DNA of 60,170 nucleotides from Nanobdellota archaeon (GCA_018816335.1 JAHIVP010000024.1:1-60170), one strand, 5' to 3'; numbered from the stretch's first letter, positions 194-59,308 are shown. The notes: a model not told the origin generated them from the sequence alone. Translations and numbers: made by a program.

Positions 194-640
194 ATGGCAG
201 ATGAATTAGAAGATTTGAGAGCACAGGTAGAAGAGAGAAAGATAGATGCTCGAGAAAAAAGGTTACTCCACAAAGCTGTTCTTGTTGCTGTAGAATTAGG
301 AATACAACTTTCTATGTCACATGATTATCGTTTTGATAGAGACGGATTGTCTATTGCTGCTAGTAGGGAATTAGACTGGGGCACTGGGGGAAAAGGGGTT
401 AAAATGCAAAAGGCAAATGTTCATTTTGATAATGGGTTAGTATATTCTCATGATTTTGATAGGCGATATGCTAGTAGCCATACTGATAGTATTGGTGCAT
501 ATAAACCTGGAGAGTGGACTGATGTGTTGGATAGATTTTATGATGTTGCTTTTGCGAAGGAAACTGCTAGGGATGAAGCTAAAGCAAGAGAGACTTGTGA
601 AGCTGAGATTGCAAGTCTTAAGGATTATTTTGGATTATAA
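194..640 (+). CDS. Lys-poor orphan protein A (function unknown)
   Basis: 148-aa ATG ORF in a genome where chance ORFs are short, with an AT-rich TATA-like tract upstream. The protein is poor in Lys/Ile/Asn and rich in Arg/Asp/Gly/Ala, unlike neighbouring housekeeping proteins. No family recognised. Confidence 0.6.
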   Translation: MADELEDLRAQVEERKIDAREKRLLHKAVLVAVELGIQLSMSHDYRFDRDGLSIAASRELDWGTGGKGVKMQKANVHFDNGLVYSHDFDRRYASSHTDSIGAYKPGEWTDVLDRFYDVAFAKETARDEAKARETCEAEIASLKDYFGL

Positions 641-665
641 TTTAGGAGTCTGAAATTTAAATTGA

Positions 666-788
666 TTATTGTTTTTTAGAATATGTTTTGAGAAACTTAT
701 AATGAGCATTTATCGTCGGTAAATCACAATGTTTTTCTTTCAAAGTGTATTTTTTGCACTTTTGACATTTTTTTAGTTTTGTTGGCAT
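666..788 (-). CDS. nop10: H/ACA RNP protein Nop10 (40 aa, below the ORF-track cutoff)
   Basis: Hand translation gives MPTKLKKCQKCKKYTLKEKHCDLPTINAHYKFLKTYSKKQ*. The CxxC..YTL...C...AH.(K/R)F pattern fits Nop10. It lies downstream of S27e and aIF2-alpha, a common archaeal gene order. Confidence 0.65.
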   Translation of the reverse strand: MPTKLKKCQKCKKYTLKEKHCDLPTINAHYKFLKTYSKKQ

Positions 789-826
789 TTTTTATTATTA
801 ACTTTTGGAATTTACTTCATATAAAA

Positions 827-894
827 CCTAACCCAACTCCCGACCCCACTCGTTGGTCGTTTTTTATCGCCGAGTGAAATCGCTCGCCCACCCT
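827..894 (-). repeat. GC-rich element GCE-1 (short form)
   Basis: The + strand reads cctaacccaactcccgaccccactcgttggtcgttttttatcgccgagtgaaatcgctcgcccaccct. Related copies lie at 1755-1854, 41611-41674 and 57606-57707. The strand given is the G-rich strand. Confidence 0.8.
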
Positions 895-980
895 GATAGC
901 TCTAGTAAATATTTATTAATAATCCACCAATTCATCCCGCAGATTTTGATTTAATTGATAATTATTTTTATTAATTAATC

Positions 981-1703
981 TTATTTTTTTCCTTCAATTA
1001 GCTTAAAATCTATTTTGTTCTTTTTTGCTTTAGTTTCAATTTCTTCTAGAATTTTATTAATTTGTATTTTTATTTCTTTGAAGTCTTTTCCTTCAATTCT
1101 CATTGTGTATTGGCCTGAGCCAAGATATAGAATTTCAACTTTATCTGTTTTAAGTAAGTCTTTGATTATGTTTATTCCTCCAGATGAATTTGTTGTAAGT
1201 TTGAATTCTTTTTTAATTTCAATTTTCTTTTCTTTTTTAGATTTTAGAATTATGTAAACTTTTTCTGCGTCTGGTTTTGGTATAAATTTTTCAAGAATTT
1301 TAGGATTTTCTTTTGCTTGTTTTAGAAATTCTGAAATTGAAGGAAATTCTGTTTTAATTTTATCTGAAGTTTCTTGTGCATTATCTTTTAATACTGTTTT
1401 TAGAATGCTAAAAGAAGATTTTTCTTGTTTATGTTGAGCCATAACTTCTTTTGTTTCTTTGAGATTTACTCTTCTAAGACTTAGTGTTACATTTCCTTGG
1501 GTTCCTCTGTTTGTTGTTAAAATTTTACAAACTATTTTTTTATTAGGTACAACATAATCTCTTAAATTTCTTATTCTTCCTGGAGATATTTCAGATACAA
1601 CTATTGTTCCTTCTCCATTTCCCTCAATTTCTACAAAAACTGTAGTTCCAACTATTTTTTTAACTGTGCATAAAACTAGATTTCCTTCTTCTAACTTTTC
1701 CAT
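981..1703 (-). CDS. eif2a: translation initiation factor aIF2 alpha subunit
   Basis: S1-domain N-terminus MEKLEEGNLVLCTVKKIVGTTVFVEIEG..EGTIVVSEISPGRIRNLRDYV...LSLRRV. Start moved to the internal ATG at 1703 because the tracked 5' extension (to 1763) runs into repeat GCE-2. Confidence 0.85.
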   Translation of the reverse strand: MEKLEEGNLVLCTVKKIVGTTVFVEIEGNGEGTIVVSEISPGRIRNLRDYVVPNKKIVCKILTTNRGTQGNVTLSLRRVNLKETKEVMAQHKQEKSSFSILKTVLKDNAQETSDKIKTEFPSISEFLKQAKENPKILEKFIPKPDAEKVYIILKSKKEKKIEIKKEFKLTTNSSGGINIIKDLLKTDKVEILYLGSGQYTMRIEGKDFKEIKIQINKILEEIETKAKKNKIDFKLIEGKK

Positions 1704-1741
1704 TTTTATTTTGGTGTTTTGTTTAATTTGTCTAAAATAAT

Positions 1742-1866
1742 TCCCTATAATAAACCCTCCCAACTCCCGACCTCACTTGTTGATCGTTTTTTATCGCTGG
1801 TGACTGCAAGTCTCGCACCTGCTCGACACTGACCTGAAATCACTCGCCCACCCTTTATTAGGGAAT
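1742..1866 (-). repeat. GC-rich element GCE-2 (long form) with flanking AT-rich stem
   Basis: The core 1755-1854 is nearly identical to 57606-57707. Flanks tccctataataaa / tttattaggga are inverted repeats. It sits between S27e and the aIF2-alpha start. Confidence 0.85.
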
Positions 1867-4143: not shown

Positions 4144-4145
4144 TT

Positions 4146-4329: not shown

Positions 4330-5025
4330 ATGGGAAGATGGAAATCTATTAGTCCTTGGTCGCAAGATCATATGTATAAGCAGATTGTTAGAGAGGGTGG
4401 TTTTATTCTAACTAGGGGGGCTATGAATCTTAGTTTTGGAGATCCAGAAAATCATGCTCTTGGAGGGAGAGTAGCGATTCCTTCGTTTCAATTATTAAAG
4501 GTCCATAAAAAACATCCTATGAGGGTTATTGATTCTGGAAAAATTACAATTCGTCCTCAAGGGGATACTCGTTTAATGGGTCGAATTGTTGATGATCCTG
4601 ATCCTACTATTTATGATTCAGCGTCTGTTTTTGTTCTTCCTTTTCCTTATTCGTCTGATTCGGATCGAGATCTTAACCAAACTTTTGGAGGAGTGTGGGA
4701 ACTTTCTTGTGGCATGAAAAGAGAAGATAGAACAGAAACTGGAGTTACTGTTTTGTATCATGGAAAAAGGGGCCTTAGTATTGATGGTACTGAGGCTAGA
4801 ACTTGGAGTGTGGTTACCCCTTCTCAGATTCCAGATCATCTATTTCAATGGTTTTACCAAGGACAGAAGATTAATGCTTTTGATCAAGATAGACAAATTT
4901 ACACTCCCGCAGGTAGATTTGAATTTCCTGCAGAAATGGCTAGAGATTTAACAACTGGAGTATCTAGAAAATTAGAGAAAAGATTTAAGACAAGAATGAT
5001 TAGAGATACTACTTCTGGTTTTTAG
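4330..5025 (+). CDS. Lys-poor orphan protein B (function unknown)
   Basis: 231-aa ATG ORF preceded by a TATA-like tract (ttatataaattattaaaaa). Composition is atypical for the window. The 3' end overlaps the convergent Bud32 stop by 17 nt. Confidence 0.7.
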   Translation: MGRWKSISPWSQDHMYKQIVREGGFILTRGAMNLSFGDPENHALGGRVAIPSFQLLKVHKKHPMRVIDSGKITIRPQGDTRLMGRIVDDPDPTIYDSASVFVLPFPYSSDSDRDLNQTFGGVWELSCGMKREDRTETGVTVLYHGKRGLSIDGTEARTWSVVTPSQIPDHLFQWFYQGQKINAFDQDRQIYTPAGRFEFPAEMARDLTTGVSRKLEKRFKTRMIRDTTSGF

Positions 5026-8500: not shown

Positions 8501-8710
8501 ATGGTTTATGAAGGGTTAACTAAACAACAGAGAAGATTGGCAGAAGTATTTGCTGATTATGTTGCTAAGACTGGTGCTGAAGTTGTTACAAAAACTATTC
8601 CTTTTAGAGAACCTGCCCACACAGAGATTTGGGATTATATAGAAAGAGTTAGAAAGTGGCAAGAAGAATCTAGAAAATCTGATATTAGGGTTACAAATCG
8701 GGTTGCTTAA
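8501..8710 (+). CDS. Lys-poor orphan protein C (69 aa)
   Basis: ATG ORF with an upstream TATA-like box, wedged between SRP54 and FtsY. Its stop overlaps the FtsY stop. It is short, so coding status is less secure. Confidence 0.45.
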   Translation: MVYEGLTKQQRRLAEVFADYVAKTGAEVVTKTIPFREPAHTEIWDYIERVRKWQEESRKSDIRVTNRVA

Positions 8711-9915: not shown

Positions 9916-10341
9916 ATGGATAGATTTAATTTGTCAGAATTAGGTTTGTTGCTTAGGTCTGTTGAAGGATTTAGTAGGTTGAGTGAGGAATTATTAAGAG
10001 TTACTCATGTTAGGGGTACTGCACAAAAAGATATTCCTGTTATTCGTGGAGTTTCATTGACTTTGCAGGTTGATGAATCTGGGGGGTTTGGTTTGGAGGA
10101 TACAGAAGTGAGGGGTGGAGCAGAATATAGTTTTGCTGGAAATCCAGCATATATGGAAGCTGCTGAGACTGTTGCCAACCATTTTTCTGTCGGATTTGGA
10201 GGACAAAATAATTGCCAGTATTTTTTATTTAAACCTAAAACTCTTAATGATTTAAGATTAGGTATTCCAAGAGTTGCTGATGCTCAACAATATTTTGGAG
10301 AAAGAATGGAAAAAGAAGCAGCTAGGATTTCTGGAGTTTAG
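9916..10341 (+). CDS. Lys-poor orphan protein D (141 aa)
   Basis: ATG ORF between the divergent FtsY start and apgM. Rich in Gly/Arg/Glu/Val. No family recognised. Confidence 0.6.
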   Translation: MDRFNLSELGLLLRSVEGFSRLSEELLRVTHVRGTAQKDIPVIRGVSLTLQVDESGGFGLEDTEVRGGAEYSFAGNPAYMEAAETVANHFSVGFGGQNNCQYFLFKPKTLNDLRLGIPRVADAQQYFGERMEKEAARISGV

Positions 10342-11639: not shown

Positions 11640-11858
11640 ATGTCTACTGATGGAAGGTATAGAGAAATGTATAGACAAGTAAATGATTCTGGGAGTATGG
11701 GAGAGACTGTTAGAAGATTAAGAGCTAGAAGATTATTGATGGCTGAAGAGAGAACTGTTGAAACAGAAGAGCCCTTTCCATTTGATAATGTTGATACAGG
11801 ACATGCAGGAAATGGACATACTTATGTGAGAGTTAATGGTCACTTTCATCGTGTATAA
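11640..11858 (+). CDS. Lys-poor orphan protein E (72 aa)
   Basis: The tracked ORF starts at a GTG (11622). The first ATG (MSTDGRY..) has the usual TATA spacing. Rich in Arg/Glu/Gly/His. Confidence 0.45.
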   Translation: MSTDGRYREMYRQVNDSGSMGETVRRLRARRLLMAEERTVETEEPFPFDNVDTGHAGNGHTYVRVNGHFHRV

Positions 11859-16709: not shown

Positions 16710-16916
16710 ATGAATCTTAAAGGTAAATTAATTAGTTTTAAAGAAGGAGAAGCTAGAGATAGATGGATGAAAGCAGTTTCTCAAATGAGGAGAGCTGTTG
16801 ATGCTGAGGAACAAAGAAGAGATGCAGGTAGGGAAGCTGCACGTTATGATGCTCAAGATGCAAGAAAAAAACATGTTTATGAAGAAGCAAGAAAATTAAG
16901 AAAACAATTAGCTTGA
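16710..16916 (+). CDS. Lys-poor orphan protein F (68 aa, Arg/Glu/Ala-rich, likely helical)
   Basis: ATG ORF with a TATA-like tract upstream. Short, so coding status is uncertain. Confidence 0.4.
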   Translation: MNLKGKLISFKEGEARDRWMKAVSQMRRAVDAEEQRRDAGREAARYDAQDARKKHVYEEARKLRKQLA

Positions 16917-16953: not shown

Positions 16954-18819
16954 ATGTTTTTTATGATATCTAAAAGAGGACAGGTCGCTATATTCATAAT
17001 TATAGCAATTATTATAGTTGCAGGAGTAATTGTGTATTTTCTTGTAAAAGATAGGACAAGTTATTCTAATATTCCTAGTGAATTTCAGCCTGTTGAAGAT
17101 TATTTTCTAAGTTGTATTGAAGATATAGTAAGAAATGGGAAAGATGTTATGGGGACGCAAGGAGGATATATTGAGCCTCCAAATTTTGACCCGGGTAGTG
17201 ATTTTATGCCTTTTTCATCTCAATTAAATTTTTATGGTTGGCCTGTTCCGTATTGGTATTATAAATCAGGTGTCAATATAATTAAAGAGCAAGTTCCATC
17301 GAAAGATGATATGGAGGAAGAGTTGAATAAATATATTCAAGATAGAGTTGGTGATTGTGATTTTGGAGATTTTGTTGTAGAGGGTTTTATTGTTGAAAGA
17401 GAGGAAGGTGTTAGAGTTCAGACAGATATTGGTGTTAATCAAATTTTTGTTAATTTGAATGCTCCTATTAATGTTAATAGAGGAGAGGAGAGTGTTAGAA
17501 TAGAGGAACATGAAGTTCAGTTAGATACAAAGTTTGGTAAGTTTTATGATTTGGCTGTTGATATTTATGATTATGAGAAAGAGGAAATGTTTTTAGAAAA
17601 TTATGCTGTTGATGTTTTGAGATTGTATGCTCCTGTTGATGGTTTTGAAATTCAGTGTAGTCCGTTGATTTGGGCTTTTAATGAAGTAGTTGATGAGGTT
17701 AAACAAGGGTTGAGTGGAAATATGCAAGCAATTAGATTGACAGGAGATTATTATGATGATTCTCATGATTATTTTGTTCAGGATTTGAGAAGTGATGAGG
17801 CTGTTAGATTTTTGTATGATCCAAGTTGGCCTACTAGAATTGAAGTTTGGCCTTCTGATAGTGGGATTTTAATTGCAGAACCTGTAGGAACTCAAGAAGG
17901 TTTAGGAATTTTAGGATTTTGTTATGTTCCTTATCATTATGTTTATGATTTGAATTATCCTGTTTTAGTTCAAATTTATGATGAAGCAGAATTGTTTCAG
18001 TTTCCTGTTGCTGTTATAATTGATAAGAACAGACCTAGGGAGGCTTTGCCTGCAACAGAAGTTAGAGATGCTACAACTGAATTGTGTAAATATAGAAATT
18101 CTAGAATGGAAGTTTATACTTATGATACTGGATTGAATCCTGTTGAAGCAGATATTAGTTTTAAATGTATTTCTGATAGTTGTTATATTGGAAAGACACA
18201 GATTAGTGGTAGTGATGCTAAGTTATCTGAGAATTTTCCTCAGTGTGTGAATGGACATGTTGTTGCTAAAGCAGAGGGTTATGTAAATAAAAAGCATCAG
18301 GTTTCAACTAATGTTGATGGACAGGTTGTTGATATTGTTTTAGATAAAATATATGATATTGGTCTTAATTTGAAGTTGGATGGGAGAGATTCAGATAGTA
18401 TGGCTGTTATTTATTTTCAATCTGAAGATTATTCTGCAACTGTATCTTGGCCTCAGCAAAGAAGTATAAGTTTAGCTCAAGGAGATTATAATGTAACTGT
18501 TTATGTTTATCAAAATTCTAGTTTGAAATTAGAAGGTTATACAACTGAAAAATGTACTGATGTTCCTAGAGAGGGTTTGTTGGGAATGTTTGGTTTAACA
18601 ACTGAAAAGTGTTTTGATATTTCTGTTCCTGATCAAATAGTTTCAATGAGTTTGTCAGGAGGGGGAAAAACTCAAGAATATATTGTTGATACAAATCTTA
18701 GAGATTATAGTGTTATAGAAATATCTGTAGAGAGTATGCCAAAACCTACAACCCTTGAAGAGCTACAAGATAATTATAATTTGTTTGAATATAAAAGAGT
18801 TTATGTTGAATATAAATAA
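16954..18819 (+). CDS. large extracellular protein with a type IV pilin-like (class III) signal peptide
   Basis: N-terminus MFFMISKRGQ-VAIFIIIAIIIVAGVIVYFLV has KRG(Q) followed by ~20 hydrophobic residues, as in archaeal prepilin-peptidase substrates. The remaining ~590 aa are Cys-containing and acidic. No family recognised. Confidence 0.6.
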   Translation: MFFMISKRGQVAIFIIIAIIIVAGVIVYFLVKDRTSYSNIPSEFQPVEDYFLSCIEDIVRNGKDVMGTQGGYIEPPNFDPGSDFMPFSSQLNFYGWPVPYWYYKSGVNIIKEQVPSKDDMEEELNKYIQDRVGDCDFGDFVVEGFIVEREEGVRVQTDIGVNQIFVNLNAPINVNRGEESVRIEEHEVQLDTKFGKFYDLAVDIYDYEKEEMFLENYAVDVLRLYAPVDGFEIQCSPLIWAFNEVVDEVKQGLSGNMQAIRLTGDYYDDSHDYFVQDLRSDEAVRFLYDPSWPTRIEVWPSDSGILIAEPVGTQEGLGILGFCYVPYHYVYDLNYPVLVQIYDEAELFQFPVAVIIDKNRPREALPATEVRDATTELCKYRNSRMEVYTYDTGLNPVEADISFKCISDSCYIGKTQISGSDAKLSENFPQCVNGHVVAKAEGYVNKKHQVSTNVDGQVVDIVLDKIYDIGLNLKLDGRDSDSMAVIYFQSEDYSATVSWPQQRSISLAQGDYNVTVYVYQNSSLKLEGYTTEKCTDVPREGLLGMFGLTTEKCFDISVPDQIVSMSLSGGGKTQEYIVDTNLRDYSVIEISVESMPKPTTLEELQDNYNLFEYKRVYVEYK

Positions 18820-18820
18820 A

Positions 18821-26207: not shown

Positions 26208-26810
26208 ATGAATAATCAATATGTTGATGATTTGTTGCGAGGTGTTGAAGGGCATCAAGGGGGAATAACTGTTAGTCCTGATGAAATGGGTAGAATTGGA
26301 AAAGCATTATTAGGTTTTCAGTTTCCACGTAATTATGGTTTTAGTGTTTCTTTACCTCCTTCTCGTGATTTTCGTGTTGGTCCAAAAGGTTCTGGACAGA
26401 TAGAACATGGGACATTATATTTCCGAAGAATTTTATTTAATAGAAATTCTGGATTGTGGAGAAAGGAATGTGCTTTTATGAGGGGGTTGAGGGGAATTAC
26501 AGAAGCTGCTGGTTTTTATGATTCTGATTATATGGTTAATAGGATGATGGTTAATCCTGGGGTGAGACAAGCTATTGAGGATTCATCTTCTGATGTTTCT
26601 ATGCTAGGGGTTTTTAGGCTTGTTGATTGGAGAGATCAGAAAAGTGAGGGAGTTGAACTAGAACCGTTTTTAGCGATTCCTGGAGCTGATCCAACAGTTG
26701 TAAGAGAATGGGAAAAGAAGTATTATAGATTTTGGGGTAAAGGAAGAGGTTTAGGAGTGTTGTCTTCAATAAAAGCTGTGAAAGCAGAAAGAATGTTTGC
26801 TACTGTTTAA
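26208..26810 (+). CDS. Lys-poor orphan protein G (200 aa)
   Basis: ATG ORF between TFB and S8e, both on the - strand. TATA-like ggttatataaagg lies upstream. The 3' end overlaps the S8e stop by 11 nt. Confidence 0.65.
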   Translation: MNNQYVDDLLRGVEGHQGGITVSPDEMGRIGKALLGFQFPRNYGFSVSLPPSRDFRVGPKGSGQIEHGTLYFRRILFNRNSGLWRKECAFMRGLRGITEAAGFYDSDYMVNRMMVNPGVRQAIEDSSSDVSMLGVFRLVDWRDQKSEGVELEPFLAIPGADPTVVREWEKKYYRFWGKGRGLGVLSSIKAVKAERMFATV

Positions 26811-32699: not shown

Positions 32700-33518
32700 A
32701 TGGAAGATTTGTTAGGTAGGTTATTGGAAACAGCAGAAGATATTGTTTTAATGAGAGATGTTCCTGCTTTAAATTCAGACCAAGTTAGTTTTGCTGTTCC
32801 TTTGAGAGGTAAATTAGCAAGGGAAGTTTTTGATGAATCTTTAACACATGATAGAGGATTACCTGAGTTTCAGAGATATTGGAGTTTTGATAAATCTAGC
32901 GGACATATTAAAGGTTTGAGTGTTTATTTAGGAACAAGATTAGATAGTAGAGTTTTGAGACCTGAAGGATTAAGAATGTTGGGTGTTAGAGAATTACAAA
33001 GTTTAGGGGGTAAAGGAAAATTAGCTGATGGGTTTTGGAGAGATGCAGGAATTGTTGTTTATTCTGCTGGAACTCCAAATCTTAATACTGCGAGAGCATT
33101 GTGTCAAAAGGGAGTTGAGGGAGAATTGGATTTGCCTTTGATATGGGGTTTTTCTGATTTGGATTATGTTCCAAAAGATGGTGGGGTTGGAATAGTTTCT
33201 ATTGAAAATCCTCAGAGGGTTATTTTAGGAGAAGAAGCTGTTAAAGTTCTTGAGGATATTGAAGCTTATCAAGGAAATAAAAAAGGTGCTTGTAGGTTGA
33301 GTCGGGGCGGGGGTGGTGATTGGGGTGCCGACTGGGTTGTTTTTGCTGATTCGGACGCTGGCTGTCTGGTGGATTGGGTTTGTGGAGAAGCCACGCGCGA
33401 AAAATTACTCCAGGCTTATAATGGATTGAGTGAGAGAGTTTATGGAGATCAAATTGAAGAGTTGCAAACAAAAAGGGATTCCTCAAGACATGAGTTTTTA
33501 GCTGAATTAGATAGATAA
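32700..33518 (+). CDS. DGR-type variable (target) protein; Lys-poor orphan H
   Basis: 272-aa ATG ORF. Residues ..GACRLSRGGGGDWGADWVVFADSDAGCLVDW.. are encoded by the variable repeat 33285-33372. The matching template encodes GACRLNRNRDGDWNANWDDFANSNANCLMA. Confidence 0.8.
   Translation: MEDLLGRLLETAEDIVLMRDVPALNSDQVSFAVPLRGKLAREVFDESLTHDRGLPEFQRYWSFDKSSGHIKGLSVYLGTRLDSRVLRPEGLRMLGVRELQSLGGKGKLADGFWRDAGIVVYSAGTPNLNTARALCQKGVEGELDLPLIWGFSDLDYVPKDGGVGIVSIENPQRVILGEEAVKVLEDIEAYQGNKKGACRLSRGGGGDWGADWVVFADSDAGCLVDWVCGEATREKLLQAYNGLSERVYGDQIEELQTKRDSSRHEFLAELDR
33285..33380 (+). repeat. variable repeat (VR) of a DGR-like cassette
   Basis: Aligned by hand to 33741-33836 (offset 456). Over 33285-33372 all 72 positions that are not A in the partner copy are identical. 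The 16 mismatches are all partner-A to G (14) or T (2). Confidence 0.8.
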
Positions 33519-33740: not shown

Positions 33741-33836
33741 GGTGCTTGTAGGTTGAATCGGAACAGGGATGGTGATTGGAATGCCAACTGGGATGATTTT
33801 GCTAATTCGAACGCTAACTGTCTAATGGCTTAAATA
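33741..33836 (+). repeat. template repeat (TR) of a DGR-like cassette (non-coding)
   Basis: This is the A-rich copy of the VR. In the VR reading frame it carries six AAY (Asn) codons and ends in TAA. It lies in an ORF-free region 223 nt downstream of the target-gene stop. Confidence 0.8.
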
Positions 33837-34090: not shown

Positions 34091-34300
34091 ATGGAATTAT
34101 TTGAGATGCCTGATGATCCGAAAGATAGAAAGAGAAGATTTGTTCTTGGAGCTTATGCTTTGGCTGGGTTGGGAGTCAGTGATTCATCTGCAAGGAGATT
34201 ATTAAGTTGTAAATTTAGCGGTGCTTTGAGAGTTGATATTGGAGTGTTTAGGAGAAAATTAAGTACTTTATATGGTGTTGAATTGGGAGATAGATTTTAA
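34091..34300 (+). CDS. Lys-poor orphan protein I (69 aa)
   Basis: ATG ORF ~255 nt downstream of the TR, rich in Arg/Leu/Gly. Short, so uncertain. Confidence 0.4.
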   Translation: MELFEMPDDPKDRKRRFVLGAYALAGLGVSDSSARRLLSCKFSGALRVDIGVFRRKLSTLYGVELGDRF

Positions 34301-34461: not shown

Positions 34462-34677
34462 ATGGTTAGAGATGTTAGAGGATCAACTCTTCCAAAAGTT
34501 ACAAGATTAGTTAGGGGTTTCTATGGGGTCCTAGGATTTTCGGATCATCCAGTTGTGGATCCAGTAGATCAAGGACATTTGCCTTTACAAGATTCTGAAG
34601 AAAGAGGGAGAAGTATAACTGTAAGTTATGATTTAGAGATAGTTCGTGTTACTTGTTCTGCTATTGGTGTGAGATAA
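34462..34677 (+). CDS. Lys-poor orphan protein J (71 aa)
   Basis: ATG ORF, rich in Val/Arg/Gly/Asp. No clear TATA at the usual spacing. Uncertain. Confidence 0.35.
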   Translation: MVRDVRGSTLPKVTRLVRGFYGVLGFSDHPVVDPVDQGHLPLQDSEERGRSITVSYDLEIVRVTCSAIGVR

Positions 34678-34707
34678 ATTTAAAACTTCTTTTATATTAA
34701 TCTATTC

Positions 34708-35749: not shown

Positions 35750-35925
35750 TGAACAAGAAATCAATTAAATATTTTGTTGAAAAAGAAAAAAAGAAAATTG
35801 GAGTAGAAGCTATAAAGAAGATTAATGTTTTAGTAGAGGATTATGTTGAGAAAATTGTAAAGAAAGCTTGTAGGAATGCTGATTTTGCAGGAAGGAAGAT
35901 TTTAAAAGAGGAAGATATAAAATGA
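35749..35925 (+). CDS. histone-fold protein (archaeal histone-like, 58 aa)
   Basis: MNKKSIKYFVEKEKKKIGVEAIKKINVLVEDYVEKIVKKACRNADFAGRKILKEEDIK. The C-terminal A..AGRK.I..EDI matches the HMf-type histone pattern. The start shares one nt with the MNT stop. Confidence 0.55.
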   Translation: MNKKSIKYFVEKEKKKIGVEAIKKINVLVEDYVEKIVKKACRNADFAGRKILKEEDIK

Positions 35926-36557: not shown

Positions 36558-37603
36558 AAATACTTTACGGATTAGCAGGAGAGGGTTTTGGCCATAGTTC
36601 TAGGGCTAAGGCAATTATTCCTTATTTAGAGAAAAGAGGACATAAAGTTAAAGTTGTAACTTATGGGCAAGCAGTTGATGTTTTGAAAAAAGAAAAATAT
36701 GATGTGTTTGAGATCAAGGGATGTGAGTTTGTTTTTGAAAAAGGGAGATTGAAGAAGTCTAAGACTTTGTATAAGAGTTGGAATAATTTCTTTGATAATA
36801 TTAAGAAGAGTAAAGAAATTTATGATTTGATGTTAGAGGATTTTGATTTATTGATTTCAGATATGGAGCCTTTAGTTTCTATTTTGTCTAATTGGTATAG
36901 GTTGCCTTTGTTAAGTTTAGATAATCAGCATAGGTTGACTAATTTGGATTTGAATGTTCCTGAAGAATATAAAATAGATTTTGAGATGGCTAGATTTGTT
37001 GTTAATTTATTTTGTAGGTCTGCTGATTGGTATATAATTGTTAATTTTGCTAATTCTAAAGTTAATAAGAAATGGAAAGAGATAACTTTTCAGGTTCCTC
37101 CAATTATTAGGCCAGATGTTAGAAAGTTGAAACCTAAAAAGAAGGATTATGTTCTTGTTTATTTAAGTAAGAAAGATAGGAAGATTGTTAATTTGTTGAA
37201 GAAGATTGATGATAATTTTGTTGTTTATGGGATGGATAAAGAAGGGAAGGAAGGGAATATTGTTTATCATAAAAAAGGGTTTGGATTTGTTAATGATTTG
37301 AAAGATTGTAAGGCGATTGTTGCTTCTGCTGGATTTAGTTTGATTGCAGAGGCGTTGTATTTGAATAAGCCGTATTTTGCTTTGCCATTGAAAGGACAGT
37401 TTGAGCAGATGTTGAATGCTATTGAGTTAAGGGGGGCGGGGTTTGGAGATTATAGTGTTGGTTTGAAAAACAGAGAAGTTGAAGATTTTTTATCTGATTT
37501 AAAGAAATATGAAATTAAGTTGAAGAAGTATAAACCTGATTATGATTTGTTATTTAAGAAACTTGATGTTGTTATTAGGAAGGTTAAGAATAATAAAAGT
37601 TAA
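36554..37603 (+). CDS. GT-B fold glycosyltransferase (MurG/UDP-glycosyltransferase-like)
   Basis: MKILYGLAGEGFGHSSRAKAI.. is a N-terminal Gly-rich loop. C-terminal motifs ..ASAGFSLIAEALYLNKP...P...QFEQ..NA. ATGA overlap with the CYTH gene. Confidence 0.65.
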   Translation: MKILYGLAGEGFGHSSRAKAIIPYLEKRGHKVKVVTYGQAVDVLKKEKYDVFEIKGCEFVFEKGRLKKSKTLYKSWNNFFDNIKKSKEIYDLMLEDFDLLISDMEPLVSILSNWYRLPLLSLDNQHRLTNLDLNVPEEYKIDFEMARFVVNLFCRSADWYIIVNFANSKVNKKWKEITFQVPPIIRPDVRKLKPKKKDYVLVYLSKKDRKIVNLLKKIDDNFVVYGMDKEGKEGNIVYHKKGFGFVNDLKDCKAIVASAGFSLIAEALYLNKPYFALPLKGQFEQMLNAIELRGAGFGDYSVGLKNREVEDFLSDLKKYEIKLKKYKPDYDLLFKKLDVVIRKVKNNKS

Positions 37604-37609
37604 ATAGTT

Positions 37610-37939
37610 ATGTTATATGGTTATATCATGATTGATAGAACAGAAGGGATTAATTGTGAAGATACTATGTCTACTGGGGGTTTTGGTGGTGGAGGGGTGT
37701 TTTGGGAGGCACTTAATGATTTAGGGAGACAGGGAAGGGTGGTGGTTTGCGGTAGGAATGTTTCTAGGGTTGCTTATGAGCAGGATAAAGGGGTTTATGA
37801 TGGGATGCAAAGAAAATATGAAGAAGCAGTGAGAAAGATGGTAGAAGCAAGCAAAGCAGCAGCAGGTGCGAGGGTGATACCTACTTCTTTATGTAGGAGG
37901 AGTGGGACAGAATATGCAAGACAAGTGGCAAGATGCTAG
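37610..37939 (+). CDS. Lys-poor orphan protein K (up to 109 aa; start uncertain)
   Basis: ORF with a very G-rich, C-poor coding strand (e.g. 27 G and 3 C in 37681-37740, counted by hand). Alternative ATGs at 37628 and 37667. Confidence 0.5.
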   Translation: MLYGYIMIDRTEGINCEDTMSTGGFGGGGVFWEALNDLGRQGRVVVCGRNVSRVAYEQDKGVYDGMQRKYEEAVRKMVEASKAAAGARVIPTSLCRRSGTEYARQVARC

Positions 37940-38054
37940 AAGATTGGCAGGATTGAATCATAGTGATGAGATGTATGAGAGAAATAGAGCTGGTTCTGTT
38001 TAATCTTATTTATAGTAGATAAAAATTTATATAGTTTGATAATTATTGATTATT

Positions 38055-38336
38055 ATGGGAAAATTATCTACACTGGGATTTGTTCCAGCTATTTTGAAAG
38101 GAGTTGGGAGATTTAATACTCTTGAAATTTCTGGTGACAGAAGAGGTGTGGCTCCTTTAAGTCGTGGTAATTTTTGTCAAAGTACATCTGTTCCTGCTCT
38201 TGGAAGGAGATTGTTTGCTAGGGTTGAGGCTGCACGAAGAGCAGTAATAGTTTATGATGTTTCTATTATTGGGATTGTTGAGAGAGTTTTTAGTGAAGGT
38301 GGAGAATATTCTAGGAAGTTTTTTGATTATAATTAA
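38055..38336 (+). CDS. Lys-poor orphan protein L (93 aa)
   Basis: The first ATG is at 38055 (the tracked start 38046 is TTG). TATA-like aaaaatttatatagtt lies ~20-33 nt upstream. Confidence 0.5.
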   Translation: MGKLSTLGFVPAILKGVGRFNTLEISGDRRGVAPLSRGNFCQSTSVPALGRRLFARVEAARRAVIVYDVSIIGIVERVFSEGGEYSRKFFDYN

Positions 38337-38348
38337 ATTTATATATTT
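38335..38348 (+). promoter_or_regulatory. TATA-box-like element upstream of the HIT gene
   Basis: aaatttatatattt lies 19-32 nt upstream of the ATG at 38367. Confidence 0.4.
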
Positions 38349-38366
38349 CTTTTATTCTGGAGTTAT

Positions 38367-39382: not shown

Positions 39383-39547
39383 TTATCCTGTGCGTATTGT
39401 TGAAGGCCTATAGTTTCCTGGAAGTGCTTCTCTTATCATTCTTGCTCCTTCATCTGCTAATATATATTTACGCACATGGTTCTTCCAAGCATCTGTAGCA
39501 CTAACATATCTTCCGTTTCCTTCTTCTTGTCTTTGTTCTTCTGCCAT
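39383..39547 (-). CDS. small Lys-poor orphan protein (54 aa, below the ORF-track cutoff)
   Basis: Hand translation gives MAEEQRQEEGNGRYVSATDAWKNHVRKYILADEGARMIREALPGNYRPSTIRTG*. This is the only member of the Lys-poor class seen on the - strand. Confidence 0.35.
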   Translation of the reverse strand: MAEEQRQEEGNGRYVSATDAWKNHVRKYILADEGARMIREALPGNYRPSTIRTG

Positions 39548-41524: not shown

Positions 41525-41610
41525 AATTCAATTTATTATTAACAGATAAATGGTGGTGGAGGTTATAAAGATTATTGGGGTGGAGTACTTCTTAATTTAT
41601 ACCAGGTAAT

Positions 41611-41674
41611 AACCCAACTCCCAACCACGCTCGTTGGTCGATTTTCATCGCCTCGCGTAATTGCTCGCCCTCCC
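41611..41674 (-). repeat. GC-rich element GCE-3 (short form)
   Basis: The + strand reads aacccaactcccaaccacgctcgttggtcgattttcatcgcctcgcgtaattgctcgccctccc, which aligns with GCE-1. Confidence 0.75.
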
Positions 41675-41732: not shown

Positions 41733-41936
41733 ATGATAATACCAGAATATGTTAGGGCTGATGAAATATTAGATAGTCCTCAGAGAACTGATATAGCTTC
41801 GAGAGTTAAAGAACAAATGAGAAGAGACGGGACAATGAAGAGACTTGATGAGTATATACATCGAGAGATGAAAGATTTCTGTGATTTAATGCATCAACCT
41901 GTTTGTGGATGTGATAGTTGCAGTAGGATGAGTTAA
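41733..41936 (+). CDS. Lys-poor orphan protein Q (67 aa)
   Basis: The first ATG is at 41733 (the tracked start 41661 is a TTG inside GCE-3): MIIPEYVRADEILDSPQRTDIASRVKEQMRRDG...CGCDSCSRMS. The stop overlaps the endA stop. Confidence 0.4.
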   Translation: MIIPEYVRADEILDSPQRTDIASRVKEQMRRDGTMKRLDEYIHREMKDFCDLMHQPVCGCDSCSRMS

Positions 41937-46927: not shown

Positions 46928-47302
46928 ATGAGTACTGATGTTTGTGATGAGAGGGGTGTAAGGGTTTCTGATACTGTTGATATTCCGTGGAGTGATTTAG
47001 CTACTGCAATTGTGGCAATTCAAGGAGAGATTCTTAGGACTCCTAGGAGGACGAGGAAAGAGGTTGAAGCTTATCATGCTGGGATTGTTGTGAGATTAGA
47101 TTCTGGAGAAAGAGTTCCTGTTCAAAGTACTGCTCATAGAAACTTACATGAGATGATGTGGTTAATGGCGCATCAGATTTATGGTGGTTTTGAAACTCCT
47201 GAAGATGCTATGCCTCATTTTTTTAATCCTGATAATGGAGATTGTTCTCAGAGAGATAGATTTAATGATTGGTATACTGAAACTTATGGTGTTGTGAATT
47301 AG
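46928..47302 (+). CDS. Lys-poor orphan protein M (124 aa)
   Basis: The first ATG is at 46928 (the tracked start is TTG), with a TATA-like tract ~22-32 nt upstream. Rich in Arg/Asp/Val/His. Confidence 0.55.
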   Translation: MSTDVCDERGVRVSDTVDIPWSDLATAIVAIQGEILRTPRRTRKEVEAYHAGIVVRLDSGERVPVQSTAHRNLHEMMWLMAHQIYGGFETPEDAMPHFFNPDNGDCSQRDRFNDWYTETYGVVN

Positions 47303-47370: not shown

Positions 47371-48417
47371 ATGAAACGAGGGTATAAACATAAAACAGGG
47401 GTTTTTGGTGCTGATTCTGAGGCTTATGCTTCTAGATTATTTTGGATGTTGAGAAATCCTCAAGGAAGTAATAGGCCTGATTTGTTGAGTGTTGATGGGA
47501 GGTTTGATCCAAAGAAACTTTCGATTGAGTTGAAATCTGGAAGAAATAAAAAAGGAGTTTTAGTTGATTATCAATTACATTATGCTGTTACAACTGCAGA
47601 TGACTATGTTGAGCTTTTTGGAGAGGACCCAAAAGTGCTTGGAGGAATGTTGCCTGGAATGAGTAATGGAGATAAGCATCTGCTTTCTAGCAAGGTTGCT
47701 TATTATTATAATGTTATTAATCGTGCTGATGAGTTAAAAGCAGGAGATGTTAATAAACCGTTTTCTTCTGTACAGATTGTTTGGGGAGATCAGTTTATGG
47801 TTCCTCATCAATTTGCTTTTTATAATTTTGCTGTTAATGTTGCTAGAAGAACAGGAAATGAGATTGGGGGTGTTGTGCATGATCTTTGGGATATGATAAG
47901 AGAGGATGTAGAGCATCATAGGAATGGTAGTTTTTTAAATTATAGTGATAGAAAAGGTTCAAAGCAATCTTGGCAAGATATTCATGGTAGAGATATTGAA
48001 GCAATTTTCAAGCAAGATATGGGAATTGCTACTAAATTTGGAGTGGAGAGAATGGAAATTATGCGGGAGATTTGGCCTGCTATGGATGATTTAGTTAGGG
48101 TTGAAATTCCTGCTCCTAATGGGACAACTATTTATGTTTTAGCAAATTGTGATGATGTTGATCTTTTTGAAGGGCCTTTTAGAGGGGTTGTTGAAGAGAG
48201 GAATCCTGTTATTGAGAAAATTCATCGGCAGAGAAGAAGAGCTGTTTCTTTGTTAGATAAGATCACATTTGAATCACATCCAAGTTTTTTTGATATGAAT
48301 GATACAAGATTGGTTAATAGTTTGAGTGTAGAAGAAATTAGAAAATTGAGTCGATTAGTTAATTGGATGGATGAGGGAGAGGAAGATATAACTGTTGGAG
48401 ATTATGTTCCTTTTTAG
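47371..48417 (+). CDS. Lys-poor orphan protein N with a possible N-terminal PD-(D/E)xK nuclease motif
   Basis: 348-aa ORF. ..GADSEAYASRLF...RPDLLSVDG.......SIELKSGRNKK has the spacing of a PD...(D/E)xK / Hjc-like core. The C-terminal ~230 aa are unrecognised. Confidence 0.65.
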   Translation: MKRGYKHKTGVFGADSEAYASRLFWMLRNPQGSNRPDLLSVDGRFDPKKLSIELKSGRNKKGVLVDYQLHYAVTTADDYVELFGEDPKVLGGMLPGMSNGDKHLLSSKVAYYYNVINRADELKAGDVNKPFSSVQIVWGDQFMVPHQFAFYNFAVNVARRTGNEIGGVVHDLWDMIREDVEHHRNGSFLNYSDRKGSKQSWQDIHGRDIEAIFKQDMGIATKFGVERMEIMREIWPAMDDLVRVEIPAPNGTTIYVLANCDDVDLFEGPFRGVVEERNPVIEKIHRQRRRAVSLLDKITFESHPSFFDMNDTRLVNSLSVEEIRKLSRLVNWMDEGEEDITVGDYVPF

Positions 48418-54579: not shown

Positions 54580-55584
54580 ATGGATGCTTTGGAAGAGTTA
54601 AGAAAACAAGAAGAGGAGAGTGCTACTGGCGCGAGAAACCAATTTTTTTATAGAGCTGTTGGAGAAGCTAGAAATCCTGAATTAGCTATGGCTCTGTTAG
54701 GTGCTATTTGTCGTAGTGGAGATGGGGGGATGATGCAGTCTTTAGCAGAAGGGCTTGGTGTTGAGAGAGCAGAAGTTGAAAGAACTGCGGCACATTTAGC
54801 AGAAAGGGGGTTGGTTTATGTAAGTAGACATGAGTCTAAATCAATATCTTTGAGAGATCTTGGATTTATTAGTTCTGTTGCACGTCGTGAGGGAGTTAGA
54901 CATCCTGAATGGGATTCAATTTTTATTCCTCGAGAAATAAGCGAAGATTTGGATAATTTTTTAGTTTCTGATTTAGGCTATGGGCCTATTCATGTTTTTG
55001 ATCTTAAGGAATTACCAATGGAAAAGGCAAGGACTTTAATGAAAGGGGTTGAAGATTTGGTTAGGTTTTATTATACAAAAAGCTTTCAGTTTCCTTTGGA
55101 ACCTTTGGAAGCTCTGAGAGAAAGAACTAAGGAAGAGATAGAAGCAATCAGAAGAGTTGAAAGAGATTTTATCCATAGAAATTTAGGGGTTCCAGCTAAT
55201 TATGATTCTGGAGAATTAACTTTTGTTTATAATCATGATGCAACTAATGTAGAAGGCTATTCTAGAAGTCATTTTGATTTTTCAGGAAAATTTCCTAGCG
55301 TTGATGATGCATTTAAGGTCGGATTTGATTCTGCTAATGGCTATCCTGTATCTGGAGTTAAATGGGTTCCTCGTTTTTTTAAAGAAGAAGTAGATACCTA
55401 TTGTCCTGGAGTTGAAGTTAGGAAAATAACAACTGACGGAAGTGAGACTTATGGATTTAGGTTAGAAATTAATCGATGGCAATATGCTCATCAGATTCAG
55501 CCACTAATTGTTCAGAGAGATGTTAAAAAAACAATGGACACTTTAGTTGAAAGAGTTGGAAAGATAGTTGAAGTTTTAGATTAA
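54580..55584 (+). CDS. Lys-poor orphan protein O with a probable N-terminal winged-helix domain
   Basis: 334-aa ORF. ..MQSLAEGLGVERAEVERTAAHLAERGLVYVS.. looks MarR/wHTH-like. The rest is unrecognised. The stop overlaps the stop of the convergent gene. Confidence 0.7.
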   Translation: MDALEELRKQEEESATGARNQFFYRAVGEARNPELAMALLGAICRSGDGGMMQSLAEGLGVERAEVERTAAHLAERGLVYVSRHESKSISLRDLGFISSVARREGVRHPEWDSIFIPREISEDLDNFLVSDLGYGPIHVFDLKELPMEKARTLMKGVEDLVRFYYTKSFQFPLEPLEALRERTKEEIEAIRRVERDFIHRNLGVPANYDSGELTFVYNHDATNVEGYSRSHFDFSGKFPSVDDAFKVGFDSANGYPVSGVKWVPRFFKEEVDTYCPGVEVRKITTDGSETYGFRLEINRWQYAHQIQPLIVQRDVKKTMDTLVERVGKIVEVLD

Positions 55585-57551: not shown

Positions 57552-57605
57552 AATACTGTCAACTTAAAGTATTATGCTTCTAAAAAATTAATAATATCTT
57601 ATGAT

Positions 57606-57707
57606 AAACCCTCCCAACTCCCGACCCCACTCGTTGATCGTTTTTTATCGCTGGTGACTGCAAGTCTCGTACCTGCTCGACACTGACCTGAAATCGCTCG
57701 CCCTCCC
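57606..57707 (-). repeat. GC-rich element GCE-4 (long form)
   Basis: Nearly identical to 1755-1854, with only a few substitutions by eye. Flanked by AT-rich partial inverted repeats. Confidence 0.85.
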
Positions 57708-57810
57708 TTTTCTAGGGTTGTTAATAAGAAGATATTTTCTAAAATATATAATAAATCAATATACTAAATTCAAAATAAGAAAATCTAATTTTTGTTAAGA
57801 TTAGGTAGGT

Positions 57811-57996
57811 TTATCCTTTTAGATCAGAGATTCCAAGTAATAAGAATAGTAATCCTATCATGATTACAAACCACACAATTCCACCTTTAAGGAATTCTAG
57901 TGCTGCTTCTCCAAATCCGTAGTAGTTAAGTCCCCAGACCCAAACTGCTCCGAGTATTAGGATTAAACCTATTAAAATTTCAGCCCATTTATTCAT
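57811..57996 (-). CDS. small two-helix membrane protein
   Basis: 61 aa with two hydrophobic helices (ILIGLILILGAVWVW; VWFVIMIGLLFLLLGI). Confidence 0.45.
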   Translation of the reverse strand: MNKWAEILIGLILILGAVWVWGLNYYGFGEAALEFLKGGIVWFVIMIGLLFLLLGISDLKG

Positions 57997-58047
57997 CTTA
58001 TTATTTTGACAATTTTAGGATATATAAACATTATTGTTGTTGATTTT

Positions 58048-58993
58048 TTGTGCACGCAGGTGACATATGTCACCCCCTAAAATAATTTAGCAAAATCAAA
58101 GTAAACCTGAGCAGGAGTTTTATTACTAAGGCTCTTATGTCCTCTGAAATGATTATATCTCATCCTAAATTCATTAATATCTTTACAGAAAGATAATTCT
58201 CTTTTAATTGTCTGAAATAATCTCTCTACCTTTCCACAAGTGGTTGGACTATGAACAGCACTACGAATATGCTTTATCCCTCTACGCCTGCACCATCTAT
58301 CGAACTTTGAATGTTTACTCTTTGATCCATAAGCAGATCCATTATCTGATAATATTTGTTTAGGTTTACCATGAATTTTTATTAGATCATCTAAGATTTT
58401 AGTCACAACTCTTGTTGTGACTCTATTAACTGCTAATAATCCAATACTATAACGAGAACAATCATCAACCACAGATATTAACCATTTATCTTTAACCTTT
58501 TGATCGCTGTGGTCTATTTGCCATAATGAGTTAGGATGTTTTCTTTCAAATCTGATATAATTATTTCTCTTCTTCTTTCTTTTAGATGGACTTGTAAGAT
58601 TATGTTTATTTAGAATTTTGTTTACAGACCAATGACTTACATTAACATAATCTTGAATTCTCTCTTGTCCCCATCCTGTTTTTTGTCTAATTTTAACGAT
58701 TTTGTTTTCTATTTCAGAAGTTATTTTTGAGTATGTTGTCTTCGGTGCTCTAGATTTATCACTTAAATCCCAATTGTCTTCATTTAACTTTTTGCTCCAA
58801 CGATATAACGTTCTTAATGTTACTTCGTAATCAAACTTTGCTTTGAGTATCCTCTTACATTGATTGTAAGAATGATGTTTTATTCTTAGTTTAAAGAACT
58901 CTTTTCTTATTTCTTCTTTTTTCATTAGATTCGCAAGTTATCACTTGCGAACTAATTTTCGGTTAGCTACTGACATATGTCAGTTGCTTCTAC
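58048..58993 (-). mobile_element. insertion sequence (~0.95 kb) encoding an rve-type DDE transposase
   Basis: Bounded by the 16-bp direct repeat attgttgttgattttt (58032-58047 and 58994-59009). Both ends carry the palindromic core TGACATATGTCA (58060-58071 and 58971-58982). Confidence 0.75.
58077..58925 (-). CDS. DDE transposase, integrase-core (rve) type, IS481/IS3-superfamily-like
   Basis: N-terminal HTH region, then LWQIDHSD (D), ILSDNGSAY (D) and GKVERLFQT (E) with typical spacing. Confidence 0.8.
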   Translation of the reverse strand: MKKEEIRKEFFKLRIKHHSYNQCKRILKAKFDYEVTLRTLYRWSKKLNEDNWDLSDKSRAPKTTYSKITSEIENKIVKIRQKTGWGQERIQDYVNVSHWSVNKILNKHNLTSPSKRKKKRNNYIRFERKHPNSLWQIDHSDQKVKDKWLISVVDDCSRYSIGLLAVNRVTTRVVTKILDDLIKIHGKPKQILSDNGSAYGSKSKHSKFDRWCRRRGIKHIRSAVHSPTTCGKVERLFQTIKRELSFCKDINEFRMRYNHFRGHKSLSNKTPAQVYFDFAKLF

Positions 58994-59083
58994 ATTGTTG
59001 TTGATTTTTATGTTCTTTTGATAATATAATAATAGTTATTATAATATAATAATGTTTATAAATTGTAGATATTTGGTTTATTT

Positions 59084-59308
59084 ATGAAATGTAATGAAAG
59101 ATCCGATTTAAGAGATTCTTTGCCGGTAAGAAATGTTTTGCAGAGAGGCGAGTTAAAGAGAGTAGCAAGTTATTTTGTTGGTTATGTGCGTGCATTCAAA
59201 CGTGCTGTATCAGAGGAATTAAATTATTTGAGACATAAATGGGATCAGCCTATGAGATTTCCTTTACAACCTGGATTTTTTGATGATTATGATTTTAGTG
59301 TGGATTAA
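59084..59308 (+). CDS. Lys-poor orphan protein P (74 aa)
   Basis: ATG ORF right next to the IS, rich in Arg/Val/Phe/Asp. Short, so uncertain. Confidence 0.4.
   Translation: MKCNERSDLRDSLPVRNVLQRGELKRVASYFVGYVRAFKRAVSEELNYLRHKWDQPMRFPLQPGFFDDYDFSVD

Follow-up and report, generated by a model that had tools for sequence, protein, structure and literature searches.

The 60,170-nucleotide contig JAHIVP010000024.1 of a Nanobdellota archaeon (assembly GCA_018816335.1), which is the window analysed here, carries 18 open reading frames (ORFs) poor in lysine among Lys-rich housekeeping genes. We find that these ORFs are genuine, expressed protein-coding genes and that they belong to a genome-wide accessory set of about 200 genes that are missing from close relatives. 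Their almost uniform + orientation is a local extreme of a real genome-wide tendency, in which 78-79% of such genes lie on one strand, compared with 55-57%. The explanation that we favour, though we put its chances at no better than even, is that they are later-arriving accessory genes whose silent sites have come to equilibrium with an extreme mutation bias specific to each strand, whereas their amino-acid composition still lags. As contig C36, the window belongs to G000, a Pacearchaeota-like DPANN genome of 0.9 Mb in 45 contigs with 31% GC. The main gene set comprises the 1095 genes of G000 found by a purpose-made ORF caller; genes with Arg > Lys are taken as the Lys-poor class genome-wide and the remaining 897 as ordinary genes. 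Comparisons were made with the relatives G002, G023 and G041 and, for the region of apgM, with 24 relative loci.

The ORFs, and the non-coding repeat that pairs with one of them as in a diversity-generating retroelement (DGR), are as follows; K and R are the fractions of Lys and Arg, GC12 is the GC content at codon positions 1+2 and p refers to codon periodicity.

194..640, +, Lys-poor ORF of 148 aa upstream of eIF2-alpha (981-1763, -); K 0.07, R 0.08, GC12 0.47
4330..5025, +, Lys-poor ORF of 231 aa from an uncharacterised DPANN family, convergent with Bud32
8501..8710, +, Lys-poor ORF of 69 aa between SRP54 and FtsY; K 0.07, R 0.12; p < 0.004
9916..10341, +, Lys-poor ORF of 141 aa, an extra gene in the FtsY/apgM spacer with a TATA-like box upstream
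11640..11858, +, Lys-poor ORF of 72 aa (78 aa from GTG 11622), extra in the apgM/Gins51 spacer; K 0, R 0.14; p < 0.004
16710..16916, +, Arg-rich ORF of 68 aa; K 0.12, R 0.16; p < 0.004
26208..26810, +, Lys-poor ORF of 200 aa, an extra gene between TFB and S8e
32700..33518, +, Lys-poor ORF of 272 aa containing the DGR-type variable repeat 33285-33375
33741..33831, +, non-coding copy resembling a DGR template repeat, identified by repeat pairing
34091..34300, +, Lys-poor ORF of 69 aa; K 0.06, R 0.13; RNA-contig depth high in its bin
34462..34677, +, Lys-poor ORF of 71 aa; K 0.01, R 0.11, GC12 0.50; p < 0.004
37610..37939, +, Lys-poor ORF of 109 aa, the most GC-rich of the set (0.44)
38055..38336, +, Lys-poor ORF of 93 aa (96 aa from TTG 38046); p < 0.005
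39383..39547, -, Lys-poor ORF of 54 aa, the sole member on the - strand; K 0.04, R 0.13
41733..41936, +, Lys-poor ORF of 67 aa (91 aa from TTG 41661); p = 0.003
46928..47302, +, Lys-poor ORF of 124 aa (131 aa from TTG 46907); K 0.01, R 0.09; no family matches
47371..48417, +, Lys-poor ORF of 348 aa from a DPANN family, with a probable N-terminal PD-(D/E)XK nuclease domain
54580..55584, +, Lys-poor ORF of 334 aa adjoining the Nre-like gene, with a weak N-terminal winged-helix signal
59084..59308, +, Lys-poor ORF of 74 aa adjoining an rve-integrase gene; p = 0.013

All 18 were confirmed to be present, with Arg exceeding Lys in each. An earlier note, made from the sequence alone, had described them as low in Lys, Ile and Asn and less AT-rich than their neighbours, and our counts agree. 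Lys accounts for 0-0.07 of the residues (16710, with 0.12, is the exception) against 10-25% in the neighbours, while Arg accounts for 0.07-0.16. The sum of Lys, Ile and Asn is 0.05-0.16, compared with mostly 0.21-0.45 in the other genes of the window (one has 0.18). GC over the whole gene is 0.34-0.44 as opposed to 0.23-0.35, and at codon positions 1+2 it is 0.38-0.51 as opposed to 0.26-0.43, most of the other genes falling within 0.26-0.40. At the third position, on the other hand, GC (GC3) is host-like, at 0.10-0.33 in the 18 ORFs and with means of 0.19 for the class and 0.20 for ordinary genes, so that the excess is confined to positions 1 and 2. For four of the ORFs a start at an upstream GTG or TTG (11622, 38046, 41661, 46907) is possible, the ATG being equally so; translation of the 41733 ORF from TTG 41661 would overlap a GC-rich repeat (41610-41674).

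The silent sites and promoters of the class are those of the host. Lys-poor genes and ordinary genes on the same strand share their synonymous codon fractions, for Arg (AGA 0.70), Ser (AGT/TCT) and Leu as for all other amino acids, and base use resembles that of coding sequence (G1 0.37, G3 0.15, C3 0.03, T3 0.48). TATA-like hexamers peak at -30..-26, where they are found in 61% of the Lys-poor genes with at least 60 bp upstream and in 60% of conserved genes. The host codon style and TATA spacing noted previously are therefore borne out, and with coding periodicity also present, so is the suggestion that the genes are not recent imports.

It is highly improbable that many of the ORFs, chiefly those shorter than 80 aa, are chance ORFs in locally GC-richer spacer DNA. 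By our estimate some six stop-free runs of at least 65 codons would be expected in the intergenic DNA of the window, and homologues or folds are not to hand for the small ORFs; even so, nine of the ten exceed stop-free shuffles of their own bases in codon periodicity of the host type. The weakest coding signature is that of 34091-34300, which fails this test (p = 0.09). For 37610..37939 the observed periodicity was reached by none of 47 shuffles, and for 39383..39547 p was < 0.004 against the C-strand model. ORFs embedded in real genes had been tried as a control and proved uninformative, as they borrow the periodicity of the host gene; the stop-free shuffles replaced them. The long ORFs, of up to 348 aa, cannot have arisen by chance since about 8% of codons would be stops, and AlphaFold2 models built with alignments reached a predicted local distance difference test (pLDDT) score of 90 for 4330-5025 and 85 for 47371-48417. 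The frequency of the TATA box at -30 also speaks for real genes. Contigs from a groundwater metatranscriptome are identical to the window over 32558-32774 and 32943-33660, at the 32700 ORF, and over 37535-37915, at a depth of 22, at the 37610 ORF, the other bins being empty. As these data were read from contigs, uncovered bins are uninformative, and the RNA library may hold DNA; the matches are modest evidence of transcription for the two ORFs.

Genome-wide, Arg exceeds Lys in 198 of the 1095 genes (18%). When these were searched by tblastn (E < 1e-5) against G002 and G023, 5 of the 198 had a match, compared with 440 of the 897 ordinary genes; in G041 the corresponding figures were 7 of 198 and 405 of 897. 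The class thus shows the patchy distribution of acquired genes in its absence from close relatives. Base and codon usage are not atypical, only the amino acids and GC12 being different, and there is no clustering in islands or with mobility genes. Genes with Arg > Lys make up 4-7% of two gene-called relatives, where the distribution is unimodal. The class in G000 forms a shoulder of a continuous distribution and not a separate mode; in Gaussian mixtures fitted to Arg/Lys, Lys+Ile+Asn and GC12, two modes genome-wide received marginal support or none. Lys-poor genes are short (mean 165 aa), single-copy and scattered, 118 of their 146 runs being singletons, with weak clustering visible in the number of adjacent pairs (42 against 31.8 expected, p = 0.03). 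Within the window only 59084 adjoins an integrase. The gene next to it (58077-58925, -) encodes an rve-type integrase/transposase with an HTH_32 domain and is of ordinary Lys-rich composition; a 128-nt repeat close to it has a second copy at 1736-1863.

The earlier note had taken the ORFs to be uniformly orphan, which is not the case. Ordinary Pfam domains are present in 11 of the 20 longest Lys-poor genes of the genome, among them a PurF-like enzyme, myo-inositol-1-phosphate synthase (MIPS), an iron-containing alcohol dehydrogenase (Fe-ADH), a Ser/Thr kinase, a radical-SAM enzyme, an ABC-2 transporter, a Na/Ca exchanger, ParB-CE and a PQQ propeller. The best matches of the Lys-poor MIPS are about 60% identical and those with names include Planctomycetota and Methanofastidiosum, while the Fe-ADH is 61% identical to a protein from a Woesearchaeote. 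Two of the three window ORFs for which large protein collections were searched (4330, 47371 and 54580) also have families, of 54 clusters and about 25 homologues respectively. The origins of the class are mixed: it contains patchy, uncharacterised DPANN families, ordinary enzymes and transporters without a counterpart in the small-genome relatives, and some true orphans. A multigene or repeat-built origin was rejected, as the window candidates have no paralogues and 11 of the 198 genes genome-wide have any; apart from the DGR repeat pair, the candidate ORFs have no DNA in common with the rest of the genome.

The two strands of G000 differ markedly in composition. At third positions the base fractions are A 0.32, C 0.025, G 0.18 and T 0.47 for genes of the G-rich strand and A 0.54, C 0.12, G 0.06 and T 0.29 for genes of the C-rich strand (unrounded, C 2.5% vs 11.6% and G 17.8% vs 5.7%), which corresponds to GC3 skews of +0.75 and -0.34 and AT3 skews of -0.19 and +0.30. 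Third-position likelihood follows strand without exception along C36, and contig-wide GC skews are 0.2-0.45, each contig holding one sign throughout. As both gene sets have G > C and T > A on one DNA strand, the asymmetry is an effect of the chromosome strand and not of transcription. Conserved proteins are affected as well: between the G-rich and C-rich strands Val is 7.5 vs 5.0%, Gly 7.0 vs 5.6, Lys 10.5 vs 12.0 and Ile 8.4 vs 10.1, with GC12 equal on both strands. The relatives G002, G023 and G041 are only weakly skewed (in a 511-kb contig, a 280-kb part and a 760-kb contig), which suggests that the mutational regime changed in the lineage of G000.

In the window the Lys-poor ORFs are divided 17:1 between the + and - strands, while the other called genes are divided 27:27. 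The test of strand bias that the earlier note had asked for shows that Lys-poor genes are not equal on both strands: the G-rich strand holds 157 of the 198 (79%) as against 559 of the 897 ordinary genes (62%; Fisher p = 3e-6), or 79% against 55% with a length-only gene caller (p = 9e-7). At the genome-wide rate of 78%, 17 of 18 lies at the high end of expectation without being exceptional (about 7% by binomial sum). The near-exclusive orientation reported for the window is thus real as an excess, but it is locally extreme and in part compositional, because the strand mutation bias runs along the same A<->G axis that defines a gene as Lys-poor. Strand-specific mixtures place 33% of the genes on the G-rich strand in an Arg-shifted component with a mean of +0.21 and 25% of those on the C-rich strand in one with a mean of -0.39, and if the Arg/Lys threshold for the C-rich strand is shifted by 0.31-0.5 log2 units, the odds ratio falls from 2.6 to 1.6-1.2. 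Whatever their composition, non-conserved genes also lie on the G-rich strand more often than conserved genes do (66-67% vs 52-53%); by our count for the window, 30 of 35 non-conserved and 14 of 36 conserved genes lie there. What remains of the orientation bias may be due to G-rich coding sequence being eroded faster on the C-rich strand, to oriented integration or to selection against head-on new genes.

Several of the ORFs stand where relatives have next to nothing. Housekeeping genes of the window include eIF2-alpha, a DHH/GAN-type protein, S15, Bud32, SRP54, FtsY, apgM, Gins51, TFB, S8e, AlaRS and an Nre-like protein, and the named homologues of the lineage-specific proteins come from metagenome-assembled genomes (MAGs) of Pacearchaeota and Woesearchaeota. 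The idea that the ORFs are wedged between conserved neighbours finds support in G002, whose synteny with G000 is otherwise excellent: its gaps are 77 bp for FtsY/apgM, 56 bp for apgM/Gins51 and 99 bp for TFB/S8e, where G000 has 9916, 11640 and 26208. At the junction holding the 41733 ORF the G002 gap is 59 bp, and a 5.7-kb block (32633-38366) between a class II aminoacyl-tRNA synthetase gene (30974-32632; Pfam) and the HIT gene, at the end of which stands ORF 38055..38336, is represented in G002 by 166 bp. More widely, the FtsY/apgM spacer is about 50-160 bp in those relatives whose FtsY alignment reaches its start, and of the 24 relatives surveyed 23 have Gins51, the apgM/Gins51 spacer measuring 19-100 bp in 18 of these; no homologue of 9916 or 11640 was found in the 24 loci. 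The five relatives with a longer apgM/Gins51 spacer (L113, L114, L120, L127 and L128) belong to other genera, and in four of them it holds unrelated inserted ORFs, all co-oriented with apgM. The site is a recurrent place of gene gain. The inserts after apgM comprise an exonuclease-like ORF, a nucleotidyltransferase/HEPN-like pair, a zinc-ribbon ORF and an 83-aa ORF; in L113 the spacer is 239 bp, AT-rich and free of ORFs.

These spacers bear on whether the genes were born where they stand, as the earlier note had speculated in proposing strand-biased gene birth. If genes were born de novo or very rapidly, with the G-rich strand favoured, the spacer orphans (9916, 11640, 26208 and the small ORFs) would be lineage-born genes that were kept when co-oriented with replication. 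We regard this as improbable. The lack of 9916 and 11640 homologues in the syntenic loci would fit it, as would the near absence of homologues of 54580 among 5.8 billion proteins, the short, single-copy and scattered nature of the ORFs, the poor single-sequence models of 26208 and 194 and the enrichment of non-conserved genes, whatever their composition, on the G-rich strand. Yet the outgroup spacers, at 19-160 bp and mostly about 50-100 bp, are too short to be non-coding precursors of inserts of 370-710 bp, nor do the ORFs hold repeats by which the spacers might have grown. Neutral sequence in this genome would by our calculation encode peptides rich in Phe, Leu, Ile and Lys, not in Arg, Gly, Asp, Val and Ala. 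Moreover, old families lie behind two of the three deeply tested members, and 9916 has a confident predicted fold (template-modelling score, pTM, 0.74 for the single-sequence Protein Atlas model of 9916..10341). Of strand-biased gene birth, then, the orientation excess stands genome-wide, while short spacers and composition disfavour birth in place.

Why the class should be poor in Lys is a separate question. The strand bias, which raises G and T on one strand, is aligned with the Lys/Arg, Ile/Val and Asn/Asp axis, and mutational drift alone could be proposed: fast-evolving native genes on the G-rich strand, under A>G and C>T pressure, would exchange Lys for Arg or Glu, Ile for Val, Asn for Asp and Thr for Ala with no foreign ancestry. 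The contrasts that define the class are all A<->G at codon positions 1-2, with 90% of Arg encoded by AGA/AGG; conserved genes shift in the same direction between strands, with Val and Gly up and Lys down; within their families the G000 copies mark the lower end of the range for Ile/Val, Asn/Asp or Glu/Gly; the Arg-shifted component is the more extreme on the G-rich strand; and the unskewed relatives lack the class. However, drift under strand bias appears insufficient, and we think it an improbable explanation, since all four bases put the class at a greater distance from the third-position equilibrium than the core genes (positions 1-2 are higher in both G and C and lower in A and T), since its Arg/Lys is about 1.7 against a neutral expectation that we calculate as about 0.55-0.6, since Arg/Lys in core genes is independent of divergence on both strands, and since in the three tested families homologues elsewhere, in unskewed genomes, already have K~R, the G000 copies falling within their range with a modest shift to Val, Asp and Gly. 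The C-rich strand also has an Arg-shifted tail. A>G hypermutation of ordinary genes in the manner of a DGR was rejected, there being no excess of G at the third position (G3 0.154 vs 0.178). Selection to avoid lysine in a functional class, for example host-directed proteins escaping Lys-directed modification or degradation, is less probable still. Arg is far above the neutral expectation, two families are Lys-poor beside Lys-rich neighbours in other AT-rich DPANN genomes and one member is a DGR target, a class of protein often involved in binding other cells. The Lys-poor genes are nevertheless heterogeneous, including cytoplasmic enzymes, membrane transporters, a nuclease-like protein and a winged helix-turn-helix protein, with no shared domain or paralogy and, for the ten largest ORFs of the window, no matches to defence or phage families above threshold. 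No obvious signal peptides were seen by eye on reading the 18 sequences. The earlier suggestion of an effector or host-interaction set finds no support on these same points.

Later arrival would account for the composition through two tiers, an old AT-adapted core and later joiners, with amelioration under two strand-specific equilibria. The core would have been Lys-rich and AT-adapted for a very long time, and the Lys-poor genes would have entered the lineage or its ancestors after it. Their amino-acid composition would lag far behind the silent sites and retain the family make-up, with Arg~Lys and rich in Gly, Val, Asp and Ala; this signature would be kept or sharpened on the G-rich strand and eroded on the C-rich strand. 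That amino-acid make-up moves slowly relative to silent sites is indicated by the core genes, whose products are rich in Lys across the clade and whose K/(K+R) of 0.63-0.66 in a 39%-GC genome differs by only 0.09 from the 0.72-0.75 in G000 at about 45% identity. A number of points weigh against late arrival. The searches point to no donor for any gene of the window, and the class is scattered as singletons mostly away from mobility genes, not the usual picture for transferred genes. In distant Pacearchaeota the 4330 family holds its position and is still Lys-poor beside Lys-rich neighbours; being old yet Lys-poor, it suggests a constraint intrinsic to the family rather than late arrival. The non-conserved genes of G002 are not Arg-shifted, so accessory status alone does not predict composition. 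High-GC12 genes are still on the G-rich strand in 70-73% of cases as against 58%, leaving an orientation excess, and the identity of the G-rich with the leading strand is assumed, the genome being in 45 contigs. It is also conceivable, if rather unlikely, that new genes, wherever they come from, are fixed one by one in tight core spacers with a preference for the G-rich, presumably leading, strand, alongside a mutational strand asymmetry that far exceeds that of the relatives, and that gain is oriented by replication. This would act through an integration mechanism or through selection on new genes only, the core genes being un-oriented (53%).

None of the 18 ORFs reached the Pfam cut-off, and for the ten largest PADLOC gave no matches and PHROGs and NCBIfam one sub-threshold match each. 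The view that none belongs to a recognised family therefore survives as regards Pfam, though 4330 and 47371 have homologues across DPANN archaea, from which alone the two families are so far known. For 4330-5025 there are 54 homologue clusters of equal length (about 220 aa), and those with names are from MAGs of Pacearchaeota or other archaea. In G000 and at two other Pacearchaeota loci (L048, L049) the gene lies between S15 and Bud32 and is convergent with the latter; a hidden Markov model of the family found nothing in G002 or G023. The AlphaFold2 model of this protein (pLDDT 90, pTM 0.87) had no match in a fold search of the PDB, either by Foldseek at E <= 0.001 or by VIA-align at Z >= 5.

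The roughly 25 homologues of 47371-48417, all from DPANN genomes, are 38-50% identical. In 24 sequences P36, D37, E53 and K55 are invariant, giving the D...(D/E)-x-K motif, and every one of the roughly 40 best Foldseek rows is an Hjc resolvase or EcoRV/HincII, although the matches are weak (E 0.07, probability 0.8-0.9, TM-score by target 0.40-0.47). Motif and model make it probable that the protein is a nuclease of the PD-(D/E)XK type whose C-terminal part is helical. The preceding ORF, 46928..47302, is not a conserved partner of this gene in L003, L004 or L006. By comparison 54580-55584 comes close to being an orphan: the 5.8 billion proteins contained a single distant homologue, 31% identical across 63% of the query, and its MarR_2 and IclR matches are below cut-off. 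For 26208..26810, whose Atlas model is poor (pLDDT 0.39), there was no match in three other DPANN genomes or in viral contigs, and two scans of viral contigs gave no relatives of 26208 or 54580. No Pfam, PHROG or PADLOC family was found for 194..640, which also has a poor Atlas model (pLDDT 0.48), and the Protein Atlas offered no usable look-alikes for 194, 9916 or 26208. A single-protein search with two candidates in 40 relatives found none, a weak negative given that one of the two has DPANN homologues.

One of the ORFs had been called the target of a DGR, which applies to 32700. The 91-nt repeat of this ORF (33285-33375) is 81% identical to 33741-33831, and nearly all differences fall at adenines of this downstream copy, as in a pair of variable and template repeats. 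This part of the claim stands; a cognate reverse transcriptase is not at the locus, the genes after the template copy being a nucleotidyltransferase, a histone and a glycosyltransferase. One RVT_1 match was found in G000, on another contig (C45:23376-24038, -; locus L137), and the gene adjoins two Lys-poor ORFs (C45 24605-25450 and 25457-26242). Among three further DPANN genomes 32700-33518 had one weak match. A metatranscriptome contig with a depth of 25 runs from 34220 back to 33674, making a 547-nt backward joint around the template-like repeat; it could represent a circular or tandem form of RNA or cDNA, or an assembly artefact.

The kind of explanation that we propose is known from other systems; what is new is that a DPANN archaeon should have so strong a strand asymmetry and an accessory set with a preferred orientation. 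In Borrelia burgdorferi leading- and lagging-strand proteins differ in composition. Strand asymmetry likewise shapes protein composition in animal mitochondria (Min and Hickey 2007, PMC2779903). In both, the G+T-rich strand enriches Val, Gly and Asp and the other strand Lys, Ile, Thr and Gln, with which the conserved genes of G000 agree. Unlike these shifts of a whole proteome, a subset in G000 departs beyond the strand effect and away from the mutational equilibrium. According to the amelioration model attributed to Lawrence and Ochman, silent sites reportedly reach the state of the host first while replacement sites lag, which predicts just what the Lys-poor genes show, namely host-like GC3 and foreign-looking positions 1-2. 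The differences are that no donor emerged, that at least one family is old and positionally conserved in Pacearchaeota and that there are two strand-specific equilibria. The genes are like taxonomically restricted genes in being short, single-copy, without Pfam families and absent from relatives of the same family, but two of the three tested have tens of homologues and the composition is opposite to that of neutral sequence in G000. The nearest case described is Lawsonia intracellularis, where genes vary first by strand bias and second through a set of putative alien genes of higher GC (Guo and Yuan 2009, PMC2671203); by the authors' argument, whatever is imported into a very AT-rich genome will be richer in GC. 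Both genomes are small and AT-rich (33% GC in Lawsonia, 31% in G000), with a strand trend first and a GC-richer minority second. The alien genes of Lawsonia differ in GC3s and codon usage and are hence recent, whereas the signal in G000 is at positions 1-2 only; and G000 is an archaeon whose genes are scattered singletons forming a minority class that is itself strand-biased.

If later arrival is correct, amino-acid make-up could mark a different ancestry after codon usage has become uninformative in AT-rich, strand-skewed genomes. In DPANN genomes, whose accessory genes are mostly unannotated, it would offer a simple route for telling the old core apart from genes gained later. The orientation of non-core genes with the skew, when core genes are not so oriented, bears on how tiny symbiont genomes gain genes. 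Two unannotated DPANN families are also flagged, one confidently modelled with no match among the solved structures searched and one nuclease-like.

Some further features of the window were observed. Two tandem paralogues (29662-30213 and 30210-30797) overlap at stop and start and share about 72-77% DNA identity; the first is a serine hydrolase by Pfam, and neither has a match in G002 or G023. A 621-aa ORF without a Pfam family (16954-18819) is followed by one of 2039 aa (18755-24874), which is moderately low in Lys (0.06) and has a match in G002 at 34% identity. Ten dispersed palindromic elements with the core CCCTCCCNCCC lie between 5269 and 56935, two of them within the Bud32 gene, and their C-tract is invariably on the + strand, although the + strand is G-rich overall.

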